64,000 bases of DNA, taken from assembly GCF_055900595.2 (NCBI RefSeq), contig NZ_CM148325.1; one strand, 5' to 3'. A program made the position numbers and the translations under genes. A model generated the notes under the pieces. The model was not told where the DNA came from and searched no databases. It saw nothing but the letters and a program-made list of their open reading frames with translations. Positions 26,386 through 27,040 of this stretch are shown one piece after another (positions within the stretch are counted from its first letter, which is position 1; each line of letters begins with the position of its first letter).

Positions 26386-26652
26386 ATGGACATTAATAAC
26401 AAAGCCCGCATTCACTGGGCATGCCGCCGTGGTATGCGCGAACTCGATATTTCAATCATGCCGTTTTTCGAACATGAGTACGACAGCTTAAGTGATGACG
26501 AAAAACGCATCTTTATTCGTCTGCTGGAATGTGACGATCCCGATCTGTTCAACTGGCTGATGAATCACGGTAAACCGGCCGATGCAGAACTGGAAATGAT
26601 GGTCCGACTCATCCAGACACGGAATCGGGAACGTGGTCCTGTGGCAATCTGA
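26386..26652 (+). CDS. sdhE: FAD assembly factor SdhE (CptB antitoxin)
   Basis: 88-aa [35 protein letters not shown]. Confidence 0.9.
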
Positions 26653-27040
26653 TTTACGCGTCTCCTGGCGCGCGCAGTGGCTTTCCTTGCTGATTCATGG
26701 GCTGGTTGCCGCTGTTATTTTACTCATGCCCTGGCCGTTAAGTTACACCCCGTTATGGATGGTGTTACTTTCGCTGGTGGTGTTTGATTGCGTTCGCAGC
26801 CAGCGACGCATTAATGCTCGCCAGGGGGAAATTCGCCTGTTGATGGACGGGCGTTTGCGTTGGCAAGGGCAGGAGTGGTGCATCGTCAAAGCGCCGTGGA
26901 TGATTAAAAGCGGCATGATGTTGCGTTTACGTTCTGATAGCGGTAAACGTCAGCACTTGTGGCTGGCAGCCGACAGCATGGACGAAGCCGAATGGCGGGA
27001 TTTACGGCGGATTTTGTTGCAACAAGAGACGCAAAGATAA
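26633..27040 (+). CDS. ygfX: inner membrane protein YgfX (CptA)
   Basis: 135-aa ORF with two hydrophobic segments; overlaps the sdhE 3' end by 20 nt. Confidence 0.85.

Follow-up and report, generated by a model that had tools for sequence, protein, structure and literature searches.

The SdhE/Sdh5/SDHAF2 factors (PF03937) are distributed through the alpha-, beta- and gamma-proteobacteria and the eukaryotes, and SdhE is found widely where no YgfX is known (PMC5042078). A role of SdhE in the flavinylation of SdhA and FrdA has been described (PMC5042078, PMC5293155), the conserved motif of these flavinylation factors is RGxxE (PMC8621075), and an E. coli ygfY mutant lost succinate dehydrogenase activity and growth on succinate, being otherwise viable (PMC5293155). 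In E. coli K-12 MG1655 the genes sdhE (b2897) and ygfX (b2896) overlap by 20 nucleotides (nt) in the RefSeq annotation, and they also go by the names cptB and cptA, under which the pair has been described as a toxin-antitoxin (TA) system. Here we analysed the gene pair of the same architecture at positions 26386 to 27040 of a 64,000-nt stretch of DNA (the window). It is the already known and annotated chromosomal sdhE-ygfX operon of E. coli. The reading favoured here, with a probability of roughly 0.7, is that of a housekeeping operon with a flavin adenine dinucleotide (FAD) assembly factor, SdhE, its membrane partner, YgfX, coupled translation of ygfX and a function other than TA. Within this reading we infer the coupling mechanism, the expression ratio, the docking of YgfX at the membrane and the non-TA interpretation, all four.

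The locus comprises two genes and the segment that they share.

26386..26652, plus strand: sdhE (ygfY/cptB) coding sequence, 88 amino acids (aa), ATG start, TGA stop; FAD assembly factor for SdhA/FrdA (open reading frame (ORF) list, Pfam, NCBIfam, RefSeq)
26633..27040, plus strand: ygfX (cptA) coding sequence, 135 aa, GTG start, TAA stop; small inner-membrane protein (ORF list, Pfam, RefSeq 'protein YgfX', AlphaFold2 (AF2))
26633..26652, plus strand: dual-coding overlap of 20 nt, SdhE (R)GPVAI-stop in frame 0 and YgfX M-V-L-W-Q-S-(D) in frame +1

Both are real genes and not chance ORFs. The sdhE product was matched by Pfam Sdh5 PF03937 (E=5e-26, 90.8 bits versus a cut-off of 27) and, over positions 1-88 of 88, by the NCBIfam SdhE equivalog NF008130 (E=1e-59, 198.4 bits versus a cut-off of 120). 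Pfam Cpta_toxin PF07254 was found in the ygfX product (E=4e-49, 166.5 bits versus a cut-off of 27.3, profile positions 1-132 of 133) and in all 34 of a set of diverse YgfX homologues. RefSeq places sdhE and ygfX at the same coordinates, with the same 20-nt overlap, on 100% identical DNA of E. coli RMDEC465. The K-12 operon agrees in gene order, protein lengths (88 and 135 aa), GTG start, neighbours (ygfZ, fldB, xerD, dsbC, recJ) and overlap, the 20 nt of which are identical in sequence. Only strain-level differences were observed, with a mean column identity of 96% over an alignment of ~1 kb. Relative to K-12 the window has a 10-bp insertion, TGATATGCTT, at 26213-26222 in the divergent ygfZ-sdhE intergenic region, and its YgfX has Cys83 and Ser103 where K-12 has Ser and Gly.

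The sdhE product resembles the other SdhE/Sdh5/SDHAF2 factors in its full-length equivalog match, its RGxxE motif and its five-helix bundle.

26428..26442, plus strand: codons of the RGxxE motif (R15-G16-M17-R18-E19), from the translation

Residues R15, G16, M17 and E19 were invariant in a paired alignment of 28 sequences. Three E. coli chains of the Protein Data Bank (PDB), 1x6i, 6c12 and 6b58, were matched with E values of 8e-59 to 2e-51, that of 1x6i (8e-59) extending over residues 1-88; 6c12 and 6b58 are both named 'FAD assembly factor SdhE' in the PDB, and 1x6i/1x6j is ygfY. The AF2 model has helices at residues 6-12, 18-34, 37-47, 51-58 and 67-83. What sets enterobacterial SdhE apart from the other factors is a short disordered tail, RGPVAI, overprinted by the start of ygfX. 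The last helix ends at residue 83, residues 84-88 (GPVAI) were modelled as low-confidence coil, the 6b58 chain covers only residues 6-84, and the distant PDB homologues (V. cholerae 2jr5, and 1puz) align only to residues ~5-80. GPVAI is probably a disordered and dispensable passenger on which the start of ygfX has been overprinted.

The ygfX product is predicted to consist of a two-helix membrane hairpin and a cytoplasmic domain resembling a pleckstrin homology (PH) domain.

26666..26818, plus strand: two transmembrane helices of YgfX (residues 12-31 and 36-62, pLDDT >90) and the short PWPLSYTP loop
26825..27034, plus strand: cytoplasmic beta-sandwich and C-terminal helix of YgfX (residues 65-134), PH-like fold

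The AF2 model, based on 34 homologues, had a predicted local distance difference test score (pLDDT) of 93.4 and a predicted template modelling score (pTM) of 0.74. Secondary structure was assigned with DSSP as a strand at residues 2-8, helices at 12-31 and 36-62, six strands at 65-112 and a helix at 118-134, and the Kyte-Doolittle peaks were centred on residues 22-29 and 45. Because the two-helix hairpin separates the N-terminal strand from the C-terminal domain, these two parts would lie on the same side of the membrane, and the R/K-rich RSQRRINAR that follows helix 2 suggests that this side is the cytoplasm. A sequence search of YgfX against the PDB returned only noise (connexin, E>0.1) and no solved structure. 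No significant sequence match to any Pfam bacterial PH (bPH) family was found, only a weak match to DUF2244 in two of the 34 members; the likeness to membrane-anchored bPH-type proteins is by predicted fold alone, and homology is not established. At 50% identity the YgfX family forms 132 clusters.

A sequence-only reading of the window had given the 88-aa and 135-aa genes with their identities, coordinates and 20-nt overlap, all of which proved exact by the ORF list, Pfam, NCBIfam, RefSeq and K-12. It had called the architecture intact, with which the ORF list, the family matches, RefSeq and K-12 all agree, and had described YgfX as a two-helix membrane protein, a description borne out by the two confidently modelled helices and the hydropathy profile.

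The junction of the two genes reads ...cgggaacGTGgtcctgtggcaatcTGA, or, parsed, ...CGGGAAC-GTG-GTCCTGTGGCAATC-TGA. The GTG of ygfX is embedded in the codons for Arg83 and Gly84 of SdhE, and ygfX runs in the +1 frame relative to sdhE. For comparison, a protein search with SdhE, restricted to one genome per species, yielded 80 Enterobacteriaceae loci with 86-100% identity, from genera that include Escherichia, Citrobacter, Salmonella, Enterobacter, Klebsiella, Kluyvera, Cedecea and Buttiauxella; with the window these made 81 sequences.

Same-strand overlaps longer than 4 nt are often start-codon miscalls, and ygfX begins with GTG behind a poor Shine-Dalgarno (SD) sequence. The overlap could accordingly be an annotation artefact, the true start of ygfX lying downstream and the genes not overlapping, an explanation to which very little credence can be given. 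Between the upstream in-frame stop (26597-26599) and Met32 the GTG is the only in-frame ATG, GTG or TTG, and Met32, the next possible start, lies within the first membrane helix. Codons 8-31 evolve as coding sequence, with entropies of 0.65, 0.15 and 1.28 at codon positions 1, 2 and 3 among the 81 sequences. In 81 of 81 sequences the GTG occupies one and the same place, 20 nt from the end of sdhE; in 26 of them the ygfX frame stays open farther upstream and contains unconserved ATG or TTG codons. The first 11 residues, M-V-L-W-x-x-x-L-R-x-S, are kept across the 34 diverse homologues down to 26% identity, the PF07254 profile aligns to YgfX from residue 2, and residues 2-8 were modelled as a beta-strand with a pLDDT of ~93. 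Since coding periodicity, conserved N-terminus, Pfam alignment and confident strand model agree, the GTG is the true start of ygfX and the overlap is no annotation artefact. Misannotation of the start codon was rejected on these grounds.

Nineteen of the 20 positions of the overlap were invariant or nearly so in the 80 species, the only common variant being T/A at 26640. The entropy at third positions of sdhE fell from 1.11 in codons 1-70 to 0.40 in codons 76-88.

Twelve more distant loci were fetched through YgfX representatives at 26-59% identity. Eight of them (L084, L085, L086 from Providencia, L087, L088 from Mixta, L089, L092 and L094) have the 20-nt overlap with GTG. The overlap is 26 nt in Pantoea ananatis (L090, 1760-2414) and 14 nt in L091 (1751-2408), where ygfX starts with ATG and the SdhE tail differs. 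In L083 (829-1507) the genes abut, TAA-C-GTG following AGGAAG, and the 85-aa SdhE is without the RGPVAI tail. In L093:1136-1579 (Logan SRR31860988) a YgfX homologue of 147 aa with an ATG start is the immediate neighbour of a divergent ygfZ-like gene; sdhE is missing from between them, and ygfX is an orphan. The genes of the Shewanella pair are separated by a 37-bp spacer (PMC8621075). The conservation check that the sequence-only reading had proposed thus showed the 20-nt overlap to be kept across the Enterobacterales and not to be universal in the Gammaproteobacteria. Loss of conservation, by which that reading would have been refuted, was not observed. The overlap is old and well conserved in the Enterobacterales, and it is not obligatory for the pair, because of the Shewanella gap, the abutting genes of L083 and the missing sdhE of L093. 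In Kluyvera genomosp. 3 YDC799 (L081:2748-3170, CP022114.1) ygfX is broken by two frameshifts, with the remainder read in the other two frames; these are either an uncorrected assembly error or the mark of a pseudogene.

The first residues of YgfX appear to be the selected element of the overlap. The N-terminal strand (residues 2-8) is encoded in it, and, since this N-terminus is conserved even in L083, where there is no overlap and the SdhE tail is missing, selection would act on YgfX. The overlap would then be frozen mainly by the conserved N-terminus of YgfX.

The constraint extends upstream of the overlap into a stretch where only sdhE codes.

26617..26632, plus strand: G-rich stretch ACACGGAATCGGGAAC inside sdhE, just upstream of the ygfX GTG; candidate internal ribosome-binding region

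Suppression of synonymous change begins here, ~16 nt upstream of the GTG, and among the 80 species codon 79 of sdhE is always the rare Arg codon CGG and codon 81 nearly always (26620-26628). This synonymous constraint suggests a selected internal translation-initiation region. It is also what a functional internal ribosome-binding site would show, and it therefore bears on a second explanation, by which ygfX is translated independently from that region and the overlap, without a regulatory role, is a frozen accident (e.g., loss of an older sdhE stop) now held by constraint on both frames. This explanation is somewhat unlikely, and it deserves to be taken seriously. The abutting L083 genes, with their clear AGGAAG, and the Shewanella spacer indicate that the pair functions without overlap, and the SdhE tail is disordered and variable. 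The SD match, however, is weak and badly spaced. The anti-SD duplex of ygfX was calculated at -4.2 kcal/mol, a value equalled by 20% of random positions, and GGGA ends 2 nt before the GTG. A strong internal SD for ygfX was rejected, as -4.2 kcal/mol lies within the background. The G-rich motif is moreover not conserved outside the Enterobacteriaceae; Providencia and other distant loci lack it and yet have the GTG and precisely the same 20-nt overlap. A non-ATG start near an upstream stop is, in addition, the classical setting of re-initiation.

Translational coupling of ygfX to sdhE, which the sequence-only reading had taken the overlap to imply, is plausible and compatible with the conserved overlap. 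The pair shares with known coupled overlapping pairs (ATGA/TGATG) the same-strand overlap, the non-ATG start near the upstream stop, the weak SD and the conserved junction. It differs from them in length of overlap, 20 nt as against the usual 1 or 4 nt, so that a ribosome ending sdhE would need to step back by ~17-20 nt, unless initiation takes place on mRNA opened by elongating ribosomes. A hairpin masking the start was considered as the coupling mechanism. A weak local hairpin was predicted at the junction in the E. coli sequence, RNAalifold gave zero conserved pairs for 12 diverse junctions, and the masking hairpin was rejected on that zero consensus; without conserved RNA structure at the start, one classical mechanism of coupling is removed. 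Several observations weigh against coupling through the overlap: the lack of a conserved fold, the loci in which the genes abut, stand apart or lack sdhE, and the weak SD-like element itself, which could support independent initiation and whose conservation in the Enterobacteriaceae argues for some direct recruitment of ribosomes. In the coupled operon proposed here, YgfX is probably made largely by ribosomes that translate or terminate sdhE, by coupling or re-initiation. The route would be either re-initiation after termination or initiation on mRNA kept open by elongating ribosomes. The rate of YgfX synthesis is most likely below that of SdhE, because of the GTG start, the weak SD-like element and a start codon that precedes the sdhE stop by only 17 nt.

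A programmed +1 frameshift around the stop codon of sdhE, yielding an SdhE-YgfX fusion protein, could also be imagined, as ygfX is in the +1 frame and proteins of 207-217 aa with both Pfam domains occur in the metagenomic protein database. This has next to no probability. There is no prfB-type slippery motif at AUC-UGA-U, and a fusion would displace the conserved N-terminal strand of YgfX. The two-domain Sdh5 + Cpta_toxin proteins (166-217 aa; P0004-P0013 and P0021, from metagenome/Logan data) form clusters of 1-2 members, and their junctions are all different, some with internal deletions. Such heterogeneity points to random 1-nt indels, deletions, sequencing or assembly errors or mutants, and not to a programmed fusion. 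The programmed frameshift or natural fusion was rejected on the differing junctions, the 1-2-member clusters and the absence of a slippery site.

The gene order around the pair, trhA-ygfZ-sdhE-ygfX-fldB-xerD-dsbC-recJ, is the standard one of E. coli.

24418-25077: trhA, neighbour
25154-26134, minus strand: ygfZ, divergent from sdhE, 981 nt in reference annotations
27080-27601, minus strand: fldB, convergent with ygfX

The same neighbours (ygfZ upstream, fldB-xerD-dsbC downstream) were found in K-12, Providencia, Mixta, Pantoea and other loci. Of 5426 complete E. coli genomes, 5425 carry the 1-kb region, the median being one copy per genome, and its places are chromosomal except for a single one; the 50 nt around the sdhE/ygfX junction are present in 5419 of the 5426. 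At least 99% identity to the window over this kilobase was reached by only 5 of the 5425 genomes. The single exception is a match on a record labelled plasmid, and one complete E. coli genome was without the locus. In RMDEC465 an IS621 transposase lies between trhA and ygfZ (L001:653-1633), where the window has only a 76-nt gap (25078-25153), so that the window derives from a genome related to RMDEC465 and distinct from it.

As a core, single-copy and syntenic locus that is inherited vertically, sdhE-ygfX behaves more like a housekeeping operon than a TA system. The competing interpretation is a genuine type IV TA system, in which membrane CptA (YgfX) inhibits FtsZ/MreB polymerisation, CptB (SdhE) counteracts it, and the overlapping genes secure synthesis of the antitoxin ahead of the toxin and in surplus. 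The sequence-only reading had noted both descriptions of the pair, TA-like module and FAD-assembly factor, in agreement with the literature (PMC8621075, PMC5042078, PMC3985639, PMC8132199), in which the TA label is contested; on the whole evidence we regard a type IV system as improbable. A small upstream partner overlapping a downstream 'toxin' is the order of many TA operons, CbtA/CbeA (YeeV/YeeU) and AbiE are likewise two-gene operons with the small protein first, and the Pfam title of PF07254 is 'Membrane-bound toxin component of toxin-antitoxin system'. CbtA/CbeA and AbiE, however, are accessory or borne by prophages or mobile genetic elements, and multi-copy or patchy, whereas sdhE-ygfX belongs to the core and keeps its synteny in E. 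coli and the Enterobacterales. A patchy or mobile distribution, which is typical of TA modules without strictly defining them, was not found for sdhE-ygfX. In a survey of E. coli TA systems CptA_toxin formed a single group with a prevalence of at least 80% in all sequence types (PMC10790755). The PADLOC defence models gave no match to the pair, and the orphan ygfX of L093 is awkward for a toxin that is supposed to need an adjacent antitoxin.

The phenotypic evidence is divided. Over-expression phenotypes of E. coli CptA were reported (Masuda 2012, here through the summaries in PMC8621075 and PMC8132199), and CptA of A. baumannii inhibited the growth of E. coli, pre-induced CptB protecting at high inducer (PMC8132199). 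These two results speak against a housekeeping function, and an over-expressed downstream protein reported in the literature to affect growth or morphology via FtsZ/MreB is what the pair has in common with type IV systems. On the other side, deletion of sdhE is viable in E. coli (PMC5293155) and Shewanella, the Shewanella double deletion gave no rescue (PMC8621075), and no TA phenotype was obtained in Serratia (PMC3985639, from Fineran's group) or Shewanella (PMC8621075). The deletion reports speak against an antitoxin whose loss is tolerated only when the toxin is gone as well. The pair also differs from type IV systems in that the part of antitoxin would fall to a conserved metabolic assembly factor and in that TA tests failed in those two other genera. 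SdhE has an independently established function in enzyme assembly, solved structures and a far wider distribution than YgfX with its 132 clusters. The reported direct interaction of SdhE and YgfX (PMC3985639) contradicts the definition of type IV, in which toxin and antitoxin do not bind each other and share a common target. For the native locus, support for the TA reading is poor. In the housekeeping reading, the growth inhibition behind the names CptA and CptB would be an over-expression phenotype of a membrane protein and not the native function of a mobile TA system.

Signals for expression of the pair were sought in the flanking DNA.

26377..26382, plus strand: Shine-Dalgarno-like AGGAAG upstream of the sdhE ATG; anti-SD duplex of -4.3 kcal/mol
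26135..26385: divergent ygfZ-sdhE intergenic (putative promoter) region, with a conserved block at ~26311-26355 that includes TACAAT (26345-26350)
27044..27073, both strands: inverted repeat TGACGGC...GCCGTCA, a hairpin on either strand, in the 39-nt convergent ygfX-fldB gap

Among the aligned loci the entropy at 26311-26355 was below that of its flanks. A consensus promoter scan of 26100-27200 found no sigma-70 site. The inverted repeat was calculated with ViennaRNA to have a folding energy of -18.0 kcal/mol on the plus strand and -16.6 kcal/mol on the minus strand. Its stem is kept relative to K-12, the loop differs, and a U-rich tail is found only on the minus (fldB) strand, so that transcripts of sdhE-ygfX would be without a canonical intrinsic terminator. 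The terminator scan of 26100-27200 did not call this repeat and gave two 'terminator-like' matches, both within ygfX and at chance level. No Rfam match at the gathering score was found in the pair or adjoining it. Elsewhere in the window the Rfam scan identified the Hfq-binding small RNA (sRNA) STnc490 (9755-9878, plus strand), a Sib antitoxin RNA (10629-10779, minus strand), 6S/SsrS RNA (11428-11611, minus strand) and, barely over threshold, the ES036 sRNA (21514-21556, minus strand).

Based on these observations, the housekeeping operon may be pictured as follows. The genes sdhE and ygfX would be co-transcribed as a bicistronic unit. SdhE would bind SdhA and FrdA and promote the covalent attachment of FAD to the complex II enzymes. 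YgfX, reported to multimerise and to bind SdhE, would be its low-abundance partner in the inner membrane, and the most economical hypothesis is that it docks SdhE at the membrane or titrates it. An AF2 prediction of SdhE-(GGGGS)6-YgfX with a genome-paired alignment reached a pTM of only 0.47 and contained no usable information on an interface. A more specific proposal, offered tentatively and rather unlikely, is that YgfX is not a toxin and acts as a membrane-anchored PH-like adaptor. It would dock SdhE, and by way of it nascent SdhA or FrdA, at the inner membrane and so couple flavinylation to assembly with the membrane subunits of complex II; the overlap would fix a low ratio of YgfX to SdhE synthesis, and the cytoskeletal 'toxicity' would arise secondarily when that ratio is disturbed.

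Every E. coli genome carries the pair in its annotation, and papers on it date back to 2012, so its detection in the window has little discovery value. The names 'Cpta_toxin' and 'toxin CptA' spread a TA label for which the genomic behaviour of the locus gives no support. What has been added is the conservation of the overlap and the GTG start across the Enterobacterales, with a footprint of dual coding and of the initiation region that is visible at synonymous sites. This makes sdhE-ygfX a candidate for a clean and easily testable case of translational coupling across a long overlap, and the predicted PH-like cytoplasmic domain provides a structural hypothesis for what YgfX may do.

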